IMG/VR virus record: IMGVR_UViG_3300027573_000023
Location: 1 to 64,000 of that record
Strand: one strand, 5' to 3'
Length of the DNA stretch: 64,000 nt
Source: a virus
Under the pieces are notes generated by a model. The model was not told where the DNA came from. It did not search any database and saw only the letters and a list, made by a program, of their open reading frames with translations. Shown here in pieces: positions 30,478 through 41,844 of this stretch (position 1 is its first letter; every line of letters begins with the position of its first letter). Made by a program: the position numbers and the translations under genes.

Positions 30478-32526
30478 ATGGGCATACCTAACAAACAAAT
30501 AGGATGGAGTCAGGAAAGTAACCTGCTCTGGGAAGTCTCCAAAGAATTACAACGCTTACAAAGTATTCTTGGTAGTGGTAGTTTGAATACTTTTAAAAGC
30601 TTAACTGTTCTTGGTACTTCTGGACCAGCATCTCTCACAGATGGTGTGTTAAACATTCCTATATATACAGCAGGAGGTGGGGGTGGTGCGCTTGGTACAG
30701 CTTCAAATGGTTTATCTGTAGCACCAGCAGGTAATGTTATATTGGGAGGGCCACTCACTGGTAATACAACTATTACTGTAGGAGCTTTTCTTTTAGCACT
30801 TACAGGTAACTCACCTACATCTATACTAAGAGTTACAAACAGCAGTGCTACTACTGGATCACATGGTATTCAAGGAGTATCTGGTGGTACAAATAGCTAT
30901 GGTATTTCTGGAGTGAATACTGGAAGTGGGGTAGGGGTGTATGCAGAAAGTTTTACAGGTACTGCAATAAGAGCAGTGTCACAGCAAGGTAATATTATAC
31001 TTGATGGAACAATTACTCCTGCTAATAATAGCACTGTTCTGCCAATGATAAGACTATTCAGAGATTCATCAGGTGCAGGAGCTGTAAATGGGATAGGATC
31101 AAGTATTGATTTTTATCACAAAGTAGATATTGGAAATACTGTAATTGCAAATAGATTAATATCAAGATGGACTAATACTATAAGTTCTCAAAGAACTTCT
31201 GAAATCTCTTTCACTGGCTATTATAATGCTGGACTTAGAGATTTGATTACTCTGGCAGGAAGTGGATTAGTAAGACTAAATCAGTATGGTGTTAGTCAAC
31301 CTGCAGGAACTGTAGATGTCTCTGCATTTGCTTTAAATATAGATGCTTTAGGTAATGTCCTTCAGGTACCTATTCCAAGCACTGATTTAGGATATCTAGG
31401 AACTCCTTTTAGTGGAACAATAACAAGTAGTAGTGGTGATGATACACCAATTCCTATTGCAAGTCAATTTATAGCAGGATTAATGTCTGCTCAACTTTTT
31501 AATAAATTGAATTCCTTTGTAGACACTAATTATGTACACAGAACAGGAGATGAACCTATTGCTGGTATCAAAACATTCAGTTCTATTCCAGTTGCTCCAG
31601 GATATTCTATTACAGGAGGGGGAGCGCCTAACAGAGTGTTACTATCAGATGGTGGTACAGCAAGCTTTGTAGAAGTAACATCAGGTGGACAGACAGAGGT
31701 ATTCTCATGGAAATATGAAACAAATCTAGCAGCAACAGATCCTGGAAATGGTAACTTTAGAGGAAACAATGCTGTAGGTAGTGCAATAACACAACTTTAT
31801 GTGGATGATTTAACATCTGTTGTAATAGCAGATATATCAGCTATGTTTGCTAAAGTGAAAGGAGATTGGCTTATTCATATCCAACAAACAAATGATGCTA
31901 CAAGATATATACAGTTTAATACATCTACAGTATATGTAGACAATATTGGATGGTGGACATTACCTGTTACTTATATACAAGGTAGTGGTTTTCCTTTTAC
32001 TAATGGACAAGCATGTACTTTTGTTTTTGTTAATCAAAATGCTGGAGCACCTCCTGCCACAACTATATTTTCACTGGTAGACTACAACATACCACCTACA
32101 CCTGGTCTTAAGAAGTCTTTCAATACATTTATTGATACAGTTGATCTTGATGTAGGTGTATATAAATTTGAATGGTTATTTGGAGCAAGAAATCTTAGTG
32201 TGGTTCAGTCTGAACTGTCAATTGGTTTCTTAGGCACAGCTGCTGTCACTCCTAATAACATCAAGTTTTCGTGCAACGCACTCAAAGCAAATGATGTTGG
32301 TTCTCCAACAGCCTCCACTCAATCTTTTCAAAAAGGATTATTGAGTAGTGAATATATTATAACAGATAAGAATAATAGAAGCTCTGCAGCTTTTGCAATA
32401 CAGGGGACTATACGTATCTTTGTACCTGGTACACTTACTCCAGCAATATCTAGTGCTGGTTTGAATTCAGGTACAGCCATAATTGAAGATAGACAATTTT
32501 TTCAAATAACAAAATTCAATATATAA
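30478..32526 (+). CDS. Fibre/spike-like structural protein with N-terminal NKQIGWSQE anchor (682 aa)
   Basis: G/S/T-rich composition, fibre motifs (YVHRTGDEPIAGIKTFS; AGLMS..LFNKL), N-terminus shared with the next two ORFs. Confidence 0.7.
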   Translation: MGIPNKQIGWSQESNLLWEVSKELQRLQSILGSGSLNTFKSLTVLGTSGPASLTDGVLNIPIYTAGGGGGALGTASNGLSVAPAGNVILGGPLTGNTTITVGAFLLALTGNSPTSILRVTNSSATTGSHGIQGVSGGTNSYGISGVNTGSGVGVYAESFTGTAIRAVSQQGNIILDGTITPANNSTVLPMIRLFRDSSGAGAVNGIGSSIDFYHKVDIGNTVIANRLISRWTNTISSQRTSEISFTGYYNAGLRDLITLAGSGLVRLNQYGVSQPAGTVDVSAFALNIDALGNVLQVPIPSTDLGYLGTPFSGTITSSSGDDTPIPIASQFIAGLMSAQLFNKLNSFVDTNYVHRTGDEPIAGIKTFSSIPVAPGYSITGGGAPNRVLLSDGGTASFVEVTSGGQTEVFSWKYETNLAATDPGNGNFRGNNAVGSAITQLYVDDLTSVVIADISAMFAKVKGDWLIHIQQTNDATRYIQFNTSTVYVDNIGWWTLPVTYIQGSGFPFTNGQACTFVFVNQNAGAPPATTIFSLVDYNIPPTPGLKKSFNTFIDTVDLDVGVYKFEWLFGARNLSVVQSELSIGFLGTAAVTPNNIKFSCNALKANDVGSPTASTQSFQKGLLSSEYIITDKNNRSSAAFAIQGTIRIFVPGTLTPAISSAGLNSGTAIIEDRQFFQITKFNI

Positions 32527-33275
32527 TGACTGCAAATAAACAAATAGGATGGAGCCAAGAGGCTATCTTGCTCCATGGCGTCTCTAAACAACTAGAGCGT
32601 CTCGCTAGCATCATAGGTGCTAGTGGTGGTGGAGGAGGTACAACAATCCCCACAGACTTGACATATACTGCAAGTGCTACTAATGGTTTACTAACCAGTA
32701 GTACAGGAGTTCTTTCTCCTGCTACAATTCCTTTGGTAACAGGAAGTTTGGCTGGGTTAATGTCTCCTACAAGTTTCAATAAACTTGCAGCTCTACCAGC
32801 AACTGTACCAGTTACTACTGTATATACTTTGTCAGCTCTTATGTCAAGTATTGTTACTAATAGGGTGGCAGTACCTGGATGGTCCTTTCCTGTGACTGCA
32901 GGCAAGAAATATAAAATAGAGATATCTGCACTCTACCAGACTGCTGCAGCTACTACTGGAGGAAGCATAGGTGTTGTTCTAACTTCAGGAACTGGTACAA
33001 TACAAGGTTATTTGGAAGGAGATGTGTCTACAGCTGCTGCAGTAGCAACAGGATTGAGAGGAACTATATCAGCTATAAGTAGTAGTAATGGTTTAGCAGG
33101 TAGTTCTATATTCACAACAGGTTCTGCTTCAATTAATACACCTACCTATATGGGTGGTATACTTACTTTTACATGTATTACTTCTGGTCAGTTTGAGGTT
33201 CAGTTTGCTACTGAGATAGTATCTAGTGCTGCTCAACTAAACGCAGGCAGTATAATGATAGTGACAGAATATTAA
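32526..33275 (+). CDS. Structural protein with N-terminal NKQIGWSQE anchor (249 aa)
   Basis: Same N-terminal motif and helix, Gly linker, beta-rich C-terminal domain. Confidence 0.7.
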   Translation: MTANKQIGWSQEAILLHGVSKQLERLASIIGASGGGGGTTIPTDLTYTASATNGLLTSSTGVLSPATIPLVTGSLAGLMSPTSFNKLAALPATVPVTTVYTLSALMSSIVTNRVAVPGWSFPVTAGKKYKIEISALYQTAAATTGGSIGVVLTSGTGTIQGYLEGDVSTAAAVATGLRGTISAISSSNGLAGSSIFTTGSASINTPTYMGGILTFTCITSGQFEVQFATEIVSSAAQLNAGSIMIVTEY

Positions 33276-33276
33276 T

Positions 33277-33284
33277 TATCTTTG
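33277..33284 (+). promoter_or_regulatory. Bacteroidota sigma-A -7 element (TATCTTTG)
   Basis: Matches TAnnTTTG, intergenic, 22 nt upstream of ATG 33307. No clear -33 TTTG seen. Confidence 0.5.
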
Positions 33285-33306
33285 TATAACTTAACAAATT
33301 AGAATC

Positions 33307-33444
33307 ATGCACTATCCAAATAAACAGATAGGCTGGAGCCAGGAGTCAATACTACTCCAGCAAATTATAAAGCAATTAGTTAGAATTAATAATCTTGCTG
33401 GAGGAGGTGGTACGCCTGCTACTACTACTAGTACAACTACATAA
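33307..33444 (+). CDS. 45-aa protein: NKQIGWSQE anchor plus Thr-rich tail (not in ORF track)
   Basis: Hand translation MHYPNKQIGWSQESILLQQIIKQLVRINNLAGGGGTPATTTSTTT; clear paralog of the N-termini of the two upstream ORFs. Confidence 0.85.
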   Translation: MHYPNKQIGWSQESILLQQIIKQLVRINNLAGGGGTPATTTSTTT

Positions 33445-33465
33445 GTAATTTAAAACCAACTACAT

Positions 33466-34482
33466 ATGAGAGAATTAGCATTTATAACTGTATGTCCAGA
33501 TGATCCTTACTATACATGGCAGGTTCATTTGTGGCTAGAGAGTTTAAGAGAAATTGGGCAATCAGATAAAGCTGTGGCCCTAATATTTACCCCTAATTAT
33601 AGGGAGCAGAACCCAAAGTGGAAGCAGGTAGTAGATTTATATCCTGAAGCCACATTCAAATTTTATAAAGATGAAGATGATGTTACCTCTCTTATTGGTA
33701 TTTATATCCCTGTGTTGCGACCTTACACGATGTGGAAGTTCCTAAGAGAGCATCCCCAATACAGTAGTAAAGCAATATTCTATTGTGATAGTGATATATT
33801 ATTCACAAAAGATTTTAATGTGGATAAATACTTAGATGATGATGTGCATTATCTATCAGATACAAATAGTTATATTAATGCTACATATTTTGACAGTAAG
33901 GTAAGAGATGTTATCCCTGAAAAGCTGGAAGAATATAAGGCTAGAGATATTCTCGCTGAACTAACCAGTCTAATAGGAATAGATAGAGCTACTTGTGAAG
34001 CAAACAATGATCACTCAGGAGGAGCACAATACTTATTAAAGAATATGGACAGTGCCTTTTGGTCTAAAGTAATGAATGATTGCATTTTGATACGCACATA
34101 TCTTCAGAAGATTAATAGAGAATTTTTCCTGTCTGAGGATGCTGGTTTCCAGAGTTGGTGTGCTGACATGTGGGCTGTTCTATGGAACCTCTGGTTAAGA
34201 AACCAGAAGACCATGGTTATACCTGAATTAAATTTTGCTTGGTCTACTGACCCTATAGATAAACTGGAAACTACTACTATCATGCACAATGCAGGTATAG
34301 TATCAGAAACAGGTAATGGTTATCCTGCCTTCTATAAAGGAAAGTATCATATGGGAGCTAATCCTATGCTTGATACACAGATAGATACAGTATTACAAAA
34401 CGAAAACTCTCAAAAATATTGCACTTGGTTCTATGCAAAAAAATTAAAAGAACTAAACGAGAAGTATAAATTAGTATATTAA
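33466..34482 (+). CDS. GT-A fold glycosyltransferase resembling HPAT/SRGT1 (GT95/GT96) peptide O-glycosyltransferases
   Basis: Ordered motifs YYTWQ, YIPVLRPY..WKFL, IFYCDSDILF (DxD), WCADMWA and late IMHNAG. No signal peptide or TM segment. Confidence 0.75.
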   Translation: MRELAFITVCPDDPYYTWQVHLWLESLREIGQSDKAVALIFTPNYREQNPKWKQVVDLYPEATFKFYKDEDDVTSLIGIYIPVLRPYTMWKFLREHPQYSSKAIFYCDSDILFTKDFNVDKYLDDDVHYLSDTNSYINATYFDSKVRDVIPEKLEEYKARDILAELTSLIGIDRATCEANNDHSGGAQYLLKNMDSAFWSKVMNDCILIRTYLQKINREFFLSEDAGFQSWCADMWAVLWNLWLRNQKTMVIPELNFAWSTDPIDKLETTTIMHNAGIVSETGNGYPAFYKGKYHMGANPMLDTQIDTVLQNENSQKYCTWFYAKKLKELNEKYKLVY

Positions 34483-34500
34483 CCCTAAAACAATTTTATT

Positions 34501-34701
34501 ATGTTCAATAATCTTAATAAGAAAGACTTAAAAGCTTTTGTCAGAATCGATGGTACTGGCAGAGTTGTTGCAGGTAGCTTAATCCTAAGAAAAAATAAGC
34601 CCAAAGTAGGTAAATGGAGAGAGATTCCAGCACATGAGTGTTGTCCACCACCAACTACTGCTGCTCCTGCAACTACCACAACAACCACTAGCGCAGCTTA
34701 A
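34501..34701 (+). CDS. 66-aa protein with basic N-terminal domain, CC motif and Pro/Thr-rich tail
   Basis: KAFVRIDGTGRVVAGSLILRKNKPKVGKWREI..HECCPPPTTAAPATTTTTTSAA. Confidence 0.8.
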   Translation: MFNNLNKKDLKAFVRIDGTGRVVAGSLILRKNKPKVGKWREIPAHECCPPPTTAAPATTTTTTSAA

Positions 34702-34706
34702 TCATC

Positions 34707-35117
34707 ATGGCACACGAATCTATTTTTCCACAGTCTATGATGGATAATGCAGAAATGTCCTTGGAAAGTGTGGCAGCTAAGCTGACATATTTTCAAGTAC
34801 AACTGCAATTTCTACATTGGCAGACTCATAGTTTTGCTGAACATCAGGCACTTGGGGGGCTCTATGACTTTGTAGGGAAACTAAAGGATGAGATAGTTGA
34901 GAAACTAATGGGCTATGCAAATAGAAGAGTAGGCAACTTTAGGCTAGAAGCTATTTCTAGTGGAGAAAGTTCATCGACTGTAGTTAATTCACTTGTTACT
35001 TTTGCCTATAACTTAATTGAATGGGCAGGAGAAAATCATTATTGTGACATTGAGAACCTGGCTCAATCTCTTTCTGGAGAGGCAGCTAAAACCAAGTATT
35101 TATTGACATTAACGTAA
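34707..35117 (+). CDS. Ferritin/Dps-like four-helix protein (DUF5856-like)
   Basis: LHWQTHSFAEHQALGGLYD...DEIVE...KTKYLLTL pattern of phage ferritin-like proteins. Confidence 0.7.
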   Translation: MAHESIFPQSMMDNAEMSLESVAAKLTYFQVQLQFLHWQTHSFAEHQALGGLYDFVGKLKDEIVEKLMGYANRRVGNFRLEAISSGESSSTVVNSLVTFAYNLIEWAGENHYCDIENLAQSLSGEAAKTKYLLTLT

Positions 35118-37183
35118 TGGATTCAAATACAAATGCAAATAACGCTGCTGGCATTTATGCCAGTGGCTTTGCATTTGGTAGAAATCCCACTCTTGCAGTT
35201 TGTTGTACGTACCATATATTTAGAGCATTAGATTATACTTCAACAACTAGTACTACAAAAAAACCTACTACTTCAACAACTAGTACTAGCTCTAGTACCA
35301 GTACCAGTACCAGTACTACATTAGTACCAACTACTACTACAACAACCACTATATTAATAACCACTTCTACAACTACTACAGTACCAACAACTAGTACTAC
35401 CACTACACCTATACCAACAACAACTACAACAACTACTATAGCACCAACTACTACAACCACATCATCATCAACATCTACTACAACTAGTTCATCTACAACT
35501 ACAACAACTACTACTATAGCACCTACAACAACTACAACCACAACTGTACCACCTACTACTACTAGTACTACAACTCCTATACCTACCACCACTACTACTA
35601 CCACTGTTGCTCCTACTACTACAACAACAACTATAGCTCCAACAACAACTACAACAACCACACCTGTACCTACAACAACTACAACTACAACTCCAGAACC
35701 TACAACAACTACTACTACTACTCCTGCGCCTACTACTACAACAACTACAACTGGTTTTCCATTTAATCTTTCTGTAGGTAATGCTTCACCAACTACTACA
35801 TGTACTTTTACTACGTATCCAAATCTAAGATATTCACGTACTGCACTTCCATTGATAAGTGGACAAATAATATATACAAACCCTGCATGTACTACTGTTA
35901 TGAATGGTGCCGCTAACTATTATAAAGAACAAATATCTCAAATTGCTTGGAGAGTAGGTAGTGGTGGAGCTCTTTCCCTTCCTAATGATTGTAATACAAC
36001 AACAACTACAACTACAGCACCACCTACCACAACAACTACAACTACAGCACCTGTTTCAACTACTACAACTACTACAACACTAATTCTATTTACTTTCTTA
36101 CCAGAAGATCCTAATCTTACTTATTTGGCAAGCAGAATTTATGATCCAATTGCAGACGTAACTTATATTTATGGAAACTTTACAGGATATAAAGATGCTG
36201 GAGTAGATAATTTTGATACAGTTCGTTTAATAAAACTAGATACTGATTTACATGTACCTGGTGGTTTTGATACTGGTACTGGATTTAATAGTGATACTGA
36301 CTTATTTTCTCAAATATTAATTCATCCTGCTGATGGTAAACTAATTGTAACAGGAGCCTTTAGTAGTTATAATGGTAGTGGTATATCAGGAATTGCTAAA
36401 ATAGATGTAGATGGAACAGTTGATGGTCCTTTTAATGCTGGAGGAACAGGATTTGGTGGTTTTCCTGGAAAAATGGATATTGGTTATGATGGTACAATTC
36501 TTGTTCCAGGAAGTTTTGGCTCTTATAATGGTAATGCTTATCAAAACCTAATAGCAATAGACCCTTCTAGTGGATTACCTACTAGTGCTGTTTTTGGAGT
36601 ACTTGATGGTGTTACATTTAGTATAAGTGCTTCTAGAACTTTTGGAGATACTTATATGATTGTTACAGGATCTTTTGATAGTTATTATAGTAATTTTGGT
36701 TATGGTGGAATAAATAAAATAGATTATATTACTGGATTTTCAGATAGCTCTTTTAACTCTGGTGGAGATGGTTTTGCTCCTCTTGCTGCTGGTACTCCAA
36801 ATTTTGTAGTAAGACTTAATGAAGACACTGATGGATCAATATATGTAGCAGGAAGTTTCACTACATACAATGGTGTTTCTGAACCTCGTATTATAAAATT
36901 AGATTCATTAGGGGCTAAAGTGGCTGCTGCTGTTTTTGATGCAGGAGGTGGGTTTAATCAAGCAGTGACTAATATTGAAGTTATCTGGGATAATAGACTC
37001 TTTATAGAGGGGCAATTTTCCAATTATAATGGTACAGCATGCTATGGTTTGGTTATATTAAATTCTGATGGTACAATACTATATGCAGCACCTGTACCTT
37101 ATTATACTCCTTTTACAGTAGGAGACAATGTTTATGGTAGAACAGATGATGAAGGTTTACACATTATATTTACAAAACCATAA
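35117..37183 (+). CDS. Mucin-like protein: long Thr/Pro tracts plus C-terminal beta-propeller-like (delta-60/DUF5122-like) repeats
   Basis: ~170 aa Thr tract and a second ~28 aa tract. C-terminal repeats DGKLIVTGAFSSYNG, DGTILVPGSFGSYNG, DGSIYVAGSFTTYNG, LFIEGQFSNYNG. Confidence 0.85.
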   Translation: MDSNTNANNAAGIYASGFAFGRNPTLAVCCTYHIFRALDYTSTTSTTKKPTTSTTSTSSSTSTSTSTTLVPTTTTTTTILITTSTTTTVPTTSTTTTPIPTTTTTTTIAPTTTTTSSSTSTTTSSSTTTTTTTIAPTTTTTTTVPPTTTSTTTPIPTTTTTTTVAPTTTTTTIAPTTTTTTTPVPTTTTTTTPEPTTTTTTTPAPTTTTTTTGFPFNLSVGNASPTTTCTFTTYPNLRYSRTALPLISGQIIYTNPACTTVMNGAANYYKEQISQIAWRVGSGGALSLPNDCNTTTTTTTAPPTTTTTTTAPVSTTTTTTTLILFTFLPEDPNLTYLASRIYDPIADVTYIYGNFTGYKDAGVDNFDTVRLIKLDTDLHVPGGFDTGTGFNSDTDLFSQILIHPADGKLIVTGAFSSYNGSGISGIAKIDVDGTVDGPFNAGGTGFGGFPGKMDIGYDGTILVPGSFGSYNGNAYQNLIAIDPSSGLPTSAVFGVLDGVTFSISASRTFGDTYMIVTGSFDSYYSNFGYGGINKIDYITGFSDSSFNSGGDGFAPLAAGTPNFVVRLNEDTDGSIYVAGSFTTYNGVSEPRIIKLDSLGAKVAAAVFDAGGGFNQAVTNIEVIWDNRLFIEGQFSNYNGTACYGLVILNSDGTILYAAPVPYYTPFTVGDNVYGRTDDEGLHIIFTKP
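35236..35752 (+). repeat. Low-complexity ACN repeat encoding P-T(6-9)-x units
   Basis: Mixed ACT/ACA/ACC codons punctuated by CCA/CCT. A second tract lies at ~35996-36080. Confidence 0.9.
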
Positions 37184-39822: not shown

Positions 39823-39864
39823 ATTCTGTGTTTCGTGTTTTTCATGCTTTGAGTGTTTAAGAAG

Positions 39865-39893
39865 AAAAAGCCAGCTTAATTGCTGGCTTTTTT
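39865..39893. terminator. Bidirectional intrinsic terminator at the convergence of the late and replication modules
   Basis: AAAAAGCCAGC-TTAATT-GCTGGCTTTTTT inverted repeat with A/T tracts on both sides. Confidence 0.85.
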
Positions 39894-39895
39894 GA

Positions 39896-40591
39896 TTATA
39901 GTTCATCTTTTACTTGCTTATAATAATCAGTTACAAAATGTGGATGTAATACTATGTCTCCTTTAGTATCATCAAGTATCTTATCTGCTGTCTCTAAAAT
40001 TTTTTCATTTGTTTGTGTACCAAGCCCTGAGACATGGAATGTACCCATTCCCCATCTATATATCATGGTATAATGTATAGGTGTTGTATATATCTTGGAG
40101 TTATGACCAAAAGTAATATCACTATCCTCTCCTGAGGACGTGTTAGGAAAAGTAATTCTATCCAAGTATTGTTTTGTATAAACATTCCCATTGTTAACAC
40201 TGCCTGCTATACCATCATATTTATTGTTAGTAAACATATACATACCCTGACTCCTGTAAATATCAAACCCTGGATGATTCAGTATATCCCCTTTGGTCTG
40301 TCTGAGGGCATAAGGCATCAGTAAATCATCATCATCTAACCTATAGATATAATCATTTTTACATTGCTTATATCCCCACTCAAGCTTGGCTGATATAGAA
40401 GGAAACCTGGTCTTGTGATTTATAATGACTACCTGTGGGTGATCATAGATATAATCCACCTCAGGATTATCATTGATAACAACCATTTCACAATCTGTAA
40501 GATCGTCCTGAGATAGGAAGGATTGTATTGCTTCTTCAAGGAGGTGATGTCTTTTGTAAGTTAATGTTAATACACTAATCATAATTTCCAT
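39896..40591 (-). CDS. Glycosyltransferase family 2 (start may be 40582)
   Basis: ISVLTLTYKR..LLEEAIQSFLSQ, EMVVIND, YIYRLDDDDL, GEDSD motifs. Confidence 0.9.
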   Translation of the reverse strand: MEIMISVLTLTYKRHHLLEEAIQSFLSQDDLTDCEMVVINDNPEVDYIYDHPQVVIINHKTRFPSISAKLEWGYKQCKNDYIYRLDDDDLLMPYALRQTKGDILNHPGFDIYRSQGMYMFTNNKYDGIAGSVNNGNVYTKQYLDRITFPNTSSGEDSDITFGHNSKIYTTPIHYTMIYRWGMGTFHVSGLGTQTNEKILETADKILDDTKGDIVLHPHFVTDYYKQVKDEL

Positions 40592-41222
40592 TTTTTAGTT
40601 TCTTATTCCAAGTAGATCCAGGTTCCCAAGATGCTAAGGTATCATGTTTAAAACAATCGTTTTCCATATCTTTCCAATTAACTACTTGTAAATTAATATC
40701 ATTTAATTCTTCTCTAAGTGCATCAACTGTTGATGTATTAGGATGAAGTCCAAGATATTTACAGATCACTTCACTCCACCAATTTGGACCAATCCATTGA
40801 CCCTCATGAATTATATTATCAATCATATTTCCTAAAAGGAAATGGTCTTTCTTAAAACCAAATATACCATTTGATAGTGCAGTCATTTTATAAGCATCAC
40901 TATAAATAATGAAACCATCATGGTGTTCGTGTGCTATAACATCTGAATGAAATCCATTTATCATTTTAAAGTCAGCATCTAAATAGATTCCTCCAAATTT
41001 ATAAACTACATACATTCGTAACAAATCTGCCTTGATTGCTGGCTCTTTATAACTATCATATATTCTTTTAAGATTTTCTGGTAGCTCAGGTAGGTTATCA
41101 TCAGTCCATAGATAGTAATTGAAATCTTTATGATGTTCCTTTATCTCATCCATATAATTTTTTATATGCTTTGGTATTCTAGTATCACTTACCCAAATCT
41201 GATGTATGTTTTTTTCTATCAT
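40575..41222 (-). CDS. Glycosyltransferase family 32 (DXD sugar-binding, OCH1-like)
   Basis: IEKNIHQIW, YYLWTDDN, ADLLRMYVVYKFGGIYLDADF, GP motif. Confidence 0.9.
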   Translation of the reverse strand: MIEKNIHQIWVSDTRIPKHIKNYMDEIKEHHKDFNYYLWTDDNLPELPENLKRIYDSYKEPAIKADLLRMYVVYKFGGIYLDADFKMINGFHSDVIAHEHHDGFIIYSDAYKMTALSNGIFGFKKDHFLLGNMIDNIIHEGQWIGPNWWSEVICKYLGLHPNTSTVDALREELNDINLQVVNWKDMENDCFKHDTLASWEPGSTWNKKLKNGNYD

Positions 41223-41844
41223 TTACTTTATATATAAAATGTAGATTAGTTTTAATTACATCCTCAGTATACTCAGATATAACTTCGTTATCTATATACT
41301 TATCAATTACATTTCGTATGTTACCATAGTTATAATCATCAAAAACAACAACTCCATCTTTTGTAAGTAGTTCTTGTGTAAAAGTAAAATCATTTTCAAC
41401 AGTTGTAGTATCATGACCTCCATCAATATGAATCAAATCAAATGTATGTAATTCATTAGAAGCTACGTACTGTCTTAATGTTAGATTACTATCACCATAT
41501 ATCTCTGTTATCTTTGTATTTGGATATGCATTTTTAATATACTCTATACATGGTTTAGTATATGCATGACCATTCAAATCAAAAATCAAATACTCTGCTT
41601 CAGGATTAGTGCTGACCATAAGTAATAAACTATGGCCAGCATTAACTCCTATTTCACATATTTTTGATTTGTTTTCAGACAGTTTTAGTAGATTGTATAT
41701 CTTACTTTCGTTTATAACATCTGTAAAGTTATCAGATGATACATCGCATATCAAATTACCTTCTACTCTTTCTCCAATTCTATCTAATATGTCAGCTATA
41801 TTAGATATGTGGACTTTAACTTCTTGTTTTATTAAATCAATCAT
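41185..41844 (-). CDS. Class I SAM-dependent methyltransferase (Methyltransf_24-like; candidate sugar O-methyltransferase)
   Basis: ICEIGVNAGHS, GDS, FDLIHIDGGH, VVFDDY. Confidence 0.85.
   Translation of the reverse strand: MIDLIKQEVKVHISNIADILDRIGERVEGNLICDVSSDNFTDVINESKIYNLLKLSENKSKICEIGVNAGHSLLLMVSTNPEAEYLIFDLNGHAYTKPCIEYIKNAYPNTKITEIYGDSNLTLRQYVASNELHTFDLIHIDGGHDTTTVENDFTFTQELLTKDGVVVFDDYNYGNIRNVIDKYIDNEVISEYTEDVIKTNLHFIYKVNDRKKHTSDLGK

Follow-up and report, generated by a model that had tools for sequence, protein, structure and literature searches.

The DNA analysed here, referred to as the window, is the whole 64,000-nucleotide stretch at positions 1 to 64,000 of the IMG/VR virus record IMGVR_UViG_3300027573_000023. 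It encodes a 338-aa predicted glycosyltransferase (GT; 33466 to 34482) flanked by open reading frames (ORFs) with threonine (Thr)-rich tracts, and we propose that this enzyme glycosylates those tracts. The window is contained in a 95,324-bp phage contig with an estimated completeness of about 75% (CheckV). Its late module, on the plus strand, begins with giant ORFs, continues with fibre-like genes, and is closed by a strong terminator-like hairpin at 39864 to 39893; no strong terminator-like site was found upstream of this hairpin within the module. Around the enzyme the order of genes is a 682-aa (30478 to 32526) and a 249-aa (32526 to 33275) fibre-like gene, a 45-aa ORF (33307 to 33444), the enzyme itself, a 66-aa ORF (34501 to 34701), a 136-aa DUF5856/Dps-like gene (34707 to 35117), and a 688-aa ORF (35117 to 37183), all on the plus strand and with an intergenic spacing of 5 to 31 nt.

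The enzyme matched the phrog_4417 profile with an E value of 1.2e-55, residues 6 to 320 aligning to positions 3 to 286 of 293. This PHROGs family has no named function; it comprised 2597 matches in one search and 762 representatives at 50% clustering (E ≤ 0.001), and 77 phage records among 50,697 phage genomes matched the enzyme by tblastn. An earlier note on this DNA, made from its letters alone, had listed the motifs YYTWQ, YIPVLRPY, DSD, and QSWCADMWA, and each is present. Across 66 diverse relatives, Y80, D108, D110, Y136, Q229, F257, H274, and K291 are invariant, and P86 and W231 nearly so. An AlphaFold2 model built from the same 66 sequences (predicted local distance difference test score, 97.3) shows a single compact globular domain whose first beta-strand begins at residue 4. 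With a Rossmann-like GT-A fold and a conserved DxD motif (DSD, residues 108 to 110), the enzyme as modelled is a cytoplasmic, soluble, metal-dependent GT-A glycosyltransferase.

Among solved structures, the best fold matches were GT8-type retaining enzymes at 7 to 12% identity, a mixture of protein-acting and lipopolysaccharide (LPS) enzymes whose members include LgtC, WbbM, glycogenin, GlyE, Skp1 alpha-GalT, and LARGE1. The LPS enzymes LgtC and WbbM are among the closest of these, and a protein acceptor cannot be read from the fold by itself. No Pfam family matched the enzyme at E ≤ 1, sequence searches of solved structures with the single protein or the family profile returned nothing useful, and matches in BFVD were limited to unnamed family members and giant-virus GT8-like proteins. 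The GT8 profile PF01501 matched neither the enzyme (E ≤ 1) nor anything in five phage genomes that carry family members, and it did find matches in 5 control genomes. On the predicted structure, then, the likeness to GT8 is one of fold only. These fold matches fit an alternative in which the enzyme acts on host envelope glycans (exclusion or serotype change) or on phage DNA, the Thr tracts being unmodified linkers that share a variable region with it. Most described phage GTs do modify DNA or host O-antigen (reviewed in PMC12619734), and the alternative has to be weighed against the genomic associations of the family.

The four ORFs described in the earlier note were borne out in every detail, and Thr-tract genes do lie on both sides of the enzyme gene: the 45-aa ORF, which ends in TPATTTSTTT, precedes it, and the 66-aa ORF, which ends in PPPTTAAPATTTTTTSAA, and the 688-aa ORF follow. 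We scanned all 432 ORFs that are 40 aa or longer in the 95,324 bp for tracts with at least 7 Thr in 12 residues, and these were confined to the three flanking ORFs and one marginal case in a 2774-aa fibre ORF. The clustering of Thr tracts around the enzyme is not due to chance. Thr codons within the tracts are a mixture of ACT, ACA, and ACC, which indicates that the tracts are selected at the protein level. We also considered whether the tracts might be simple repeats of DNA and rejected this, given the mixed codon use and a periodicity that is found at the protein level.

To place these genes among related phages, we used 80 IMG/VR loci found with a 13-sequence alignment, in which the enzyme is 63 to 81% identical to that of the window. 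At least 50 distinct ORFs of the 45-aa type ('MAIPSRQIGWS..NLLWQISKQLE..T7-8') lie just 5' of the enzyme in IMG/VR relatives; most are 42 to 62 aa long, with a few of up to 128 aa, and consist of an anchor followed by T7-8 and sometimes by a small Cys domain. Homologues of the 66-aa protein were found by tblastn in 77 of the 80 loci at about +1040 from the GT start, often as tandem paralogues, making this protein the most conserved partner of the enzyme. Its 109 unique homologues share a conserved 46-aa N-terminal domain ending in ECC, followed by one to four T7-xAP repeats; in the window the domain is followed by a Pro/Thr tail. The possibility that such small ORFs are spurious was rejected because their N-terminal modules are kept across dozens of diverged loci, and by sequence conservation the 45-aa and 66-aa ORFs are taken to be real genes, shared by about 80 related phages.

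In the window, the first ~35 residues of the 45-aa micro-protein (NKQIGWSQE..LL...K.L.R, a predicted fibre-type anchor helix, then a Gly4 linker ahead of the Thr-rich tail) are common to both upstream fibre-like proteins (E ~1e-8). Alignment and tblastn from the 45-aa N terminus gave E values of 1e-8 for the 682-aa protein, which also has a weak BppL_N match, and 7e-8 for the 249-aa protein. The stretch from 30478 to 33444 is thus three consecutive genes (682, 249, and 45 aa) in which one ~35-aa N-terminal module and a Gly linker are joined to unrelated payloads; small Cys-rich domains are also carried by this anchor module in relatives. Judging from these alignments, the module looks like an interchangeable docking or trimerisation tag.

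The 688-aa protein is mucin-like in layout: a 45-aa head containing CC is followed by a Thr/Pro stalk of ~180 aa, which a small Cys domain separates from a second Thr stalk, and the C-terminal part is a DUF5122 beta-propeller (E = 1e-18). Residues 46 to 225 are 60% Thr and 12% Pro, and this long stalk is coded by a degenerate 30-nt repeat that corresponds to a 10-residue T7-x-A/V-P unit. The protein is specific to this genome, its C-terminal part being missing in 48 of 48 relatives with enough flanking sequence. Like the 45-aa and 66-aa proteins, it is a candidate acceptor. The DUF5856/Dps-like four-helix protein encoded between the 66-aa and 688-aa genes (PF19174, E = 3e-10; phrog_858) follows the 66-aa gene in 74 of the 80 relatives and has no evident role in glycosylation.

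Linkage of the enzyme to Thr tracts was a general feature of the related loci. At a stricter cut-off of 8 Thr in 12 residues, Thr-tract ORFs occurred in 72 of the 80, nearly all within ~2.5 kb of the GT, and every one of them was on the GT strand and none on the opposite strand. The enzyme, the 66-aa protein, DUF5856, a 94-aa protein, and a 105-aa protein make up the conserved block. The earlier note had held that its proposal would fail if homologues were not linked to Thr-rich ORFs; linkage was found in these 80 relatives and again in distant phages.

Among isolated phages, distant homologues (about 22 to 34% identity by tblastn) sit within structural modules. In Enterococcus phage phiFL1A the homologue is flanked by the major tail gene on one side and the tail chaperones on the other, and the major head and major tail proteins both end in poly-Thr. 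In Lactococcus phage CHPC971 and Clostridium phage phiCTP1 it is directly 3' of the tail-tube gene, and in Lacticaseibacillus phage PLE3 directly 3' of the head genes. Capsid, tail-tube, portal, and decoration-like proteins end in poly-Thr among these four phages, while two genes located 5' of the homologue in Chryseobacterium phage MA9V-3 bear internal poly-Thr tracts. Thr tracts in the five distant phages are almost entirely on proteins of the structural module, the one listed exception being a weaker tract (7 of 12) in the annotated holin of CHPC971. PLE3 also encodes, between a head gene and the enzyme gene, a 125-aa protein that is about one-third pure poly-Thr (gp08, L083:6474-6851, annotated as 'major tail protein'). 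It matched the Pfam family Mucin at E = 8.5e-5, below the cut-off, and is probably a misannotated decoration or dedicated acceptor protein.

A comparison of homologous capsid and tail proteins (50 to 60% identity) relates the tails to the enzyme more directly. In phiFL1A and R3.3, where the GT is present, these proteins run on into poly-Thr. Their homologues in Streptococcus phages Javan47 and Javan505 and in Lactobacillus phages Bassarid and phiJL-1 do not extend beyond the conserved core, and these four loci lack both a family member and any run of five Thr. The poly-Thr tails and the enzyme were gained or lost together in two lineages.

We also performed the search in reverse, scanning IMG/VR only for DNA coding for Thr9. 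Of the 118 loci recovered, 109 had an ORF that contained a T8 run. A family member 27 to 36% identical to the window enzyme was present in 9 of the 109, and in all 9 it was immediately downstream of a 556- to 2067-aa protein that contains several poly-Thr linkers. The probability of this by chance is ~1e-13 if the base rate is set, generously, at 0.15%, from the 77 matching records in 50,697 phage genomes. At seven IMG/VR loci (L159, L179, L169, L114, L180, L132, and L138) the enzyme gene overlaps the end of such large proteins, in which small Cys-rich domains are spaced by poly-Thr linkers and which often end in C-x-x-C-type motifs.

Action on envelope glycans or DNA would have to account for same-strand adjacency in distant lineages (27 to 36% identity) with quite different virion architectures, for the joint gain and loss of tails and enzyme, and for the position of the gene within the head-tail operon, where tube and chaperone genes flank it, rather than among early or lysogeny genes. 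Most Thr-tract loci do lack the family, and the LPS enzymes among the fold matches point the same way, but taken together the evidence makes an acceptor other than phage proteins highly improbable. The enzyme family adjoins Thr-tailed capsid, tail, or fibre proteins in many unrelated phages, from which we conclude that these phages very probably sugar-coat their own particles.

Whether the enzyme adds the first sugar or only extends a glycan started by another enzyme is a separate matter, on which the other GT genes bear. Three overlapping minus-strand genes at 39896 to 41844 encode a 231-aa GT2 (39896 to 40591; PF00535, E = 1.5e-11), a 215-aa DXD glycosyltransferase of the Gly_transf_sug or TcdA/TcdB-type GT-A kind (40575 to 41222; PF04488, E = 1.3e-12), and a 219-aa Methyltransf_24/O-methyltransferase (41185 to 41844; PF13578, E = 7.5e-15). 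The first two are candidate elongating enzymes and the third a candidate sugar-capping enzyme. In seven protein clusters of ~900 to 1190 aa, a single polypeptide carries PF04488, PF00535, and the phrog_4417 domain, and other phrog_4417 fusions involve Methyltransf_24, GT60 (PF11397), GT6, O-FucT, GT4, and radical-SAM domains; these fusions link the cassette to the enzyme. They can also be read to mean that the enzyme belongs to a Thr-tract pathway in which it only elongates, the first sugar coming from a host enzyme or from the phage GT2 or PF04488 protein. There are, after all, two further GTs in the window, the family is often fused to other GT domains, and the fold neighbours GlyE, Skp1 alpha-GalT, and LARGE1 elongate.

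The distribution of these genes argues otherwise. The enzyme is the invariant partner of the Thr-tract genes, while 37 of 48 relatives encode the GT2 and none of the 48 encodes the PF04488 GT. In PLE3, phiFL1A, CHPC971, and phiCTP1 we found no GT2, GT4, GT8, GT25, or PF04488 gene; R3.3 had no GT8, GT25, or PF04488 gene (GT2 and GT4 were not searched there), and MA9V-3 had no GT2 or GT4 gene. By these profile searches, five Firmicutes phages with poly-Thr tails have no recognisable GT besides phrog_4417, and since it stands alone in these small phages a priming role is favoured. We therefore consider a purely elongating enzyme unlikely.

Members of the family also occur outside phages. About 28 chromosomal homologues of 451 to 587 aa were found in Sphingobacterium, Chitinophaga, Pedobacter, Elizabethkingia, and related genera (loci L223 to L251), and 20 of them adjoin GG-leader precursor peptides and/or C39 peptidase ABC exporters (e.g., L223:1948-12946, L235:6010-12360, L241, and L245). 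Precursors, where found, have a GG leader (MKKISLKNLNLKEVEQLSREQLKNVLGG) and a core that is Ser/Thr-rich first and Cys-rich at its end, and some clusters also encode HlyD, a C39 + VKOR + thioredoxin protein, a GT2, and a LanC-like protein. The layout appears to be that of glycocin-like RiPP clusters and would represent a second, independent Ser/Thr-peptide setting of the family. GG-leader precursors, C39 exporters, and thiol-disulfide enzymes are common to these Bacteroidota clusters and to the glycocins sublancin and glycocin F, but the known glycocin GTs are GT2 enzymes (SunS type) and come from Firmicutes. The window itself has no GG-leader peptide and no C39 exporter, and our literature search found no description of Bacteroidota glycocins or of a phrog_4417-type GT in them.

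Taken together, these results strongly support the part of the earlier note that had the enzyme acting on the Thr tracts, through synteny, adjacency in distant phages, joint gain and loss, the reverse scan, and the occurrence of the enzyme as sole GT; the plant HPAT/SRGT1 label that came with it was supported to a lesser degree, as discussed below. On this evidence there is a functional tie between the enzyme and the tracts, and glycosylation of the tracts is its most likely activity. The best explanation, to which we assign a probability of roughly three in four, is that a GT-A enzyme glycosylates poly-Thr tags directly to give brush-like virion glycoproteins. The cytoplasmic DxD enzyme would move a sugar from a nucleotide-sugar straight onto Thr of the tags, before or during particle assembly. 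The tagged proteins here would be the 45-aa protein, with the anchor of two tail-fibre-like proteins, the 66-aa protein, with its small N-terminal domain, and the 688-aa stalk-and-propeller protein. The first sugar would probably then be extended and O-methylated by the GT2, the PF04488-type GT, and the Methyltransf_24 protein encoded 3 to 5 kb away, and the outcome would be brush-like glycoprotein filaments displayed on the virion. From the observed gene anatomy, fold, conservation, and cross-lineage co-occurrence we infer the acceptor residue, the priming role, and the donor sugar, as well as virion attachment of the small proteins and a benefit to the phage, for which the earlier note had proposed shielding, hydration, or adhesion. 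A GT-A fold could also be used for related chemistry on the same tracts, such as transfer of sugar-1-phosphate (phosphoglycosylation), for which we see only a very slim chance.

Several findings weigh against direct glycosylation of the tags. The nearest solved folds include the LPS enzymes LgtC and WbbM, and the ~28 chromosomal loci have no poly-Thr neighbours. In the relatives examined, conservation does not extend to the PF04488 (GT32-type) and methyltransferase genes, and host enzymes could prime the Thr tracts, leaving only extension to this enzyme. Finally, 100 of the 109 Thr-tract loci in the reverse scan lacked a family member within the DNA examined; poly-Thr therefore does not require the enzyme and may serve as plain linkers elsewhere. 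A broader proposal, that phrog_4417 is a general soluble peptide-Thr O-glycosyltransferase, is offered more tentatively, its chances lying somewhat below even. On this view, phages of Firmicutes and Bacteroidota would employ it with portable poly-Thr tags to coat capsids, tails, and dedicated anchor micro-proteins with sugar, and Bacteroidota would employ it in making secreted glycocin-like peptides. Poly-Thr and the enzyme would then make up a cytoplasmic module for glyco-tagging that needs nothing else, and would probably represent a distant branch, bacterial and viral, of the plant HPAT-type peptide GTs.

The phage portal is 24 to 26% identical to crAss-like phage portals over 95% of its length, and the nearest relatives of the enzyme are on contigs binned with Cytophagales, Saprospiraceae, and Sediminibacterium. 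On the strength of this portal identity and binning, it is reasonable to regard the phage as distantly crAss-like with a Bacteroidota host. Ahead of the fibre genes, positions 1 to 30457 hold three giant plus-strand ORFs (at least 4720, 2463, and 2774 aa). The 2774-aa fibre ORF is Gly/Thr/Ser-rich, contains internal repeats, and accounts for the only other (weak) Thr tract of the genome. The large terminase (contig C1:89195-91224; L206:9195-11224) is formed by two adjoining ORFs of 295 and 381 aa that match the N- and C-terminal halves of phrog_6681, and this split could be a frameshift, an intron or intein remnant, or genuine.

To our knowledge, glycosylated phage particles have been measured only in mycobacteriophages. 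Virion glycans of mycobacteriophages blunt antibody recognition. If direct glycosylation of the tags is confirmed, a different and much more widespread family glycosylates phages of lactic acid bacteria, enterococci, staphylococci, clostridia, and aquatic and gut Bacteroidota, by way of a poly-Thr tag that is easily recognised. Such coats would bear on immune visibility, mucus adherence, and stability in phage therapy, and annotation would gain as well, since in the collections that were searched the 'hypothetical proteins' concerned number from several hundred to a few thousand, besides many overlooked genes of 45 to 70 aa. The poly-Thr tag and the enzyme could be used in biotechnology for one-enzyme, one-tag protein glycosylation in the bacterial cytoplasm. 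We found no literature description of phrog_4417 in searches covering poly-Thr tails, glycosylated tail proteins of lactic-acid-bacteria phages, and Bacteroidota glycocins.

Comparison with known systems may clarify where this enzyme belongs. The earlier note had aligned it with plant HPAT (GT95), and the hints of this proved weak. The HPAT profile PF23452 did not match the enzyme even at E ≤ 1, and it found nothing in the window genome or in five phage genomes with homologues, which is weak evidence because control genomes were also unmatched. It was matched by 3 of 66 relatives (best E value, 0.012), and 22 of 30 named language-model neighbour clusters carry it on 10 to 58% of their members; neither the enzyme nor five distant homologues scored above its gathering score. 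Among the longer proteins searched, none was of the SGT1/SERGT1 (GT96) type. By sequence, membership in the plant HPAT/SGT1 families is unproven and a distant kinship with HPAT possible. HPAT transfers arabinofuranose to hydroxyproline of extensin-type peptides, and SGT1/SERGT1 is a peptidyl-serine alpha-galactosyltransferase. These plant and algal enzymes likewise act directly on the hydroxy-amino acids of repetitive peptides, to which they add the first sugar, but their acceptor is hydroxyproline or Ser where that of the phage enzyme would be Thr, and they are Golgi membrane proteins whereas the phage enzyme is predicted to be cytoplasmic and soluble. We know of no peptidyl-hydroxyproline synthesis in the bacterial cytoplasm.

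The term 'mucin-type' used in the earlier note is likewise best kept as an analogy. Animal mucin-type GT27 enzymes (polypeptide GalNAc-transferases) and the GT60 Thr-GlcNAc transferases of trypanosomes are similar in that a retaining GT-A enzyme primes dense Thr/Pro repeats to yield brush-like glycoproteins, and some phrog_4417 members are fused to a GT60 domain (PF11397). GT27 enzymes, however, combine a GT2-like catalytic domain with a ricin-type lectin domain; the phage enzyme is a single 338-aa domain with no Pfam match, and the phage system has neither GT27 or a GT2-plus-ricin architecture nor a secretory pathway. At the level of sequence, the phage enzyme has no membership in the GT8-type retaining enzymes (glycogenin, LgtC, and GlyE of the PsrP serine-rich-repeat pathway) or in the related GT24 and GT77 protein-glycan enzymes.

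Among the closest known systems is the virion glycosylation of mycobacteriophages, to which the earlier note had also pointed. Che8, Corndog, and Myrna virions are reportedly glycosylated by phage-encoded GTs, with capsid and tail-tube subunits modified at their C termini, as Freeman et al. are said to have described in Cell Host Microbe in 2023. Passages of PMC12363180 and PMC12619734 cite mycobacteriophage virion glycosylation. In Che8, gp108 combines GT2 with Methyltransf_24 and gp110 is GT25-like, and both GT2 and Methyltransf_24 are also encoded in the window. The enzyme itself has no counterpart there, the family profile finding nothing in the Che8 genome (E ≤ 1) and hence no homology to gp108-110. 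The Che8 acceptors are short motifs at the C termini of the capsid and tail proteins (...KTGS and ...SDGS) that lack a poly-Thr tract, and the Che8 GT genes are at the genome end rather than beside acceptor genes. Hosts differ as well, being Actinobacteria for the Che8 type and Firmicutes and Bacteroidota for phrog_4417 phages, as do acceptors, the candidates in the window being small anchor proteins and a mucin-like protein instead of the capsid. What the two have in common is that GT presence tracks dedicated acceptor sequences, here through joint gain and loss and through adjacency in distant phages. On these comparisons, the phage system would appear to work like mycobacteriophage virion glycosylation while standing apart from it in membership.

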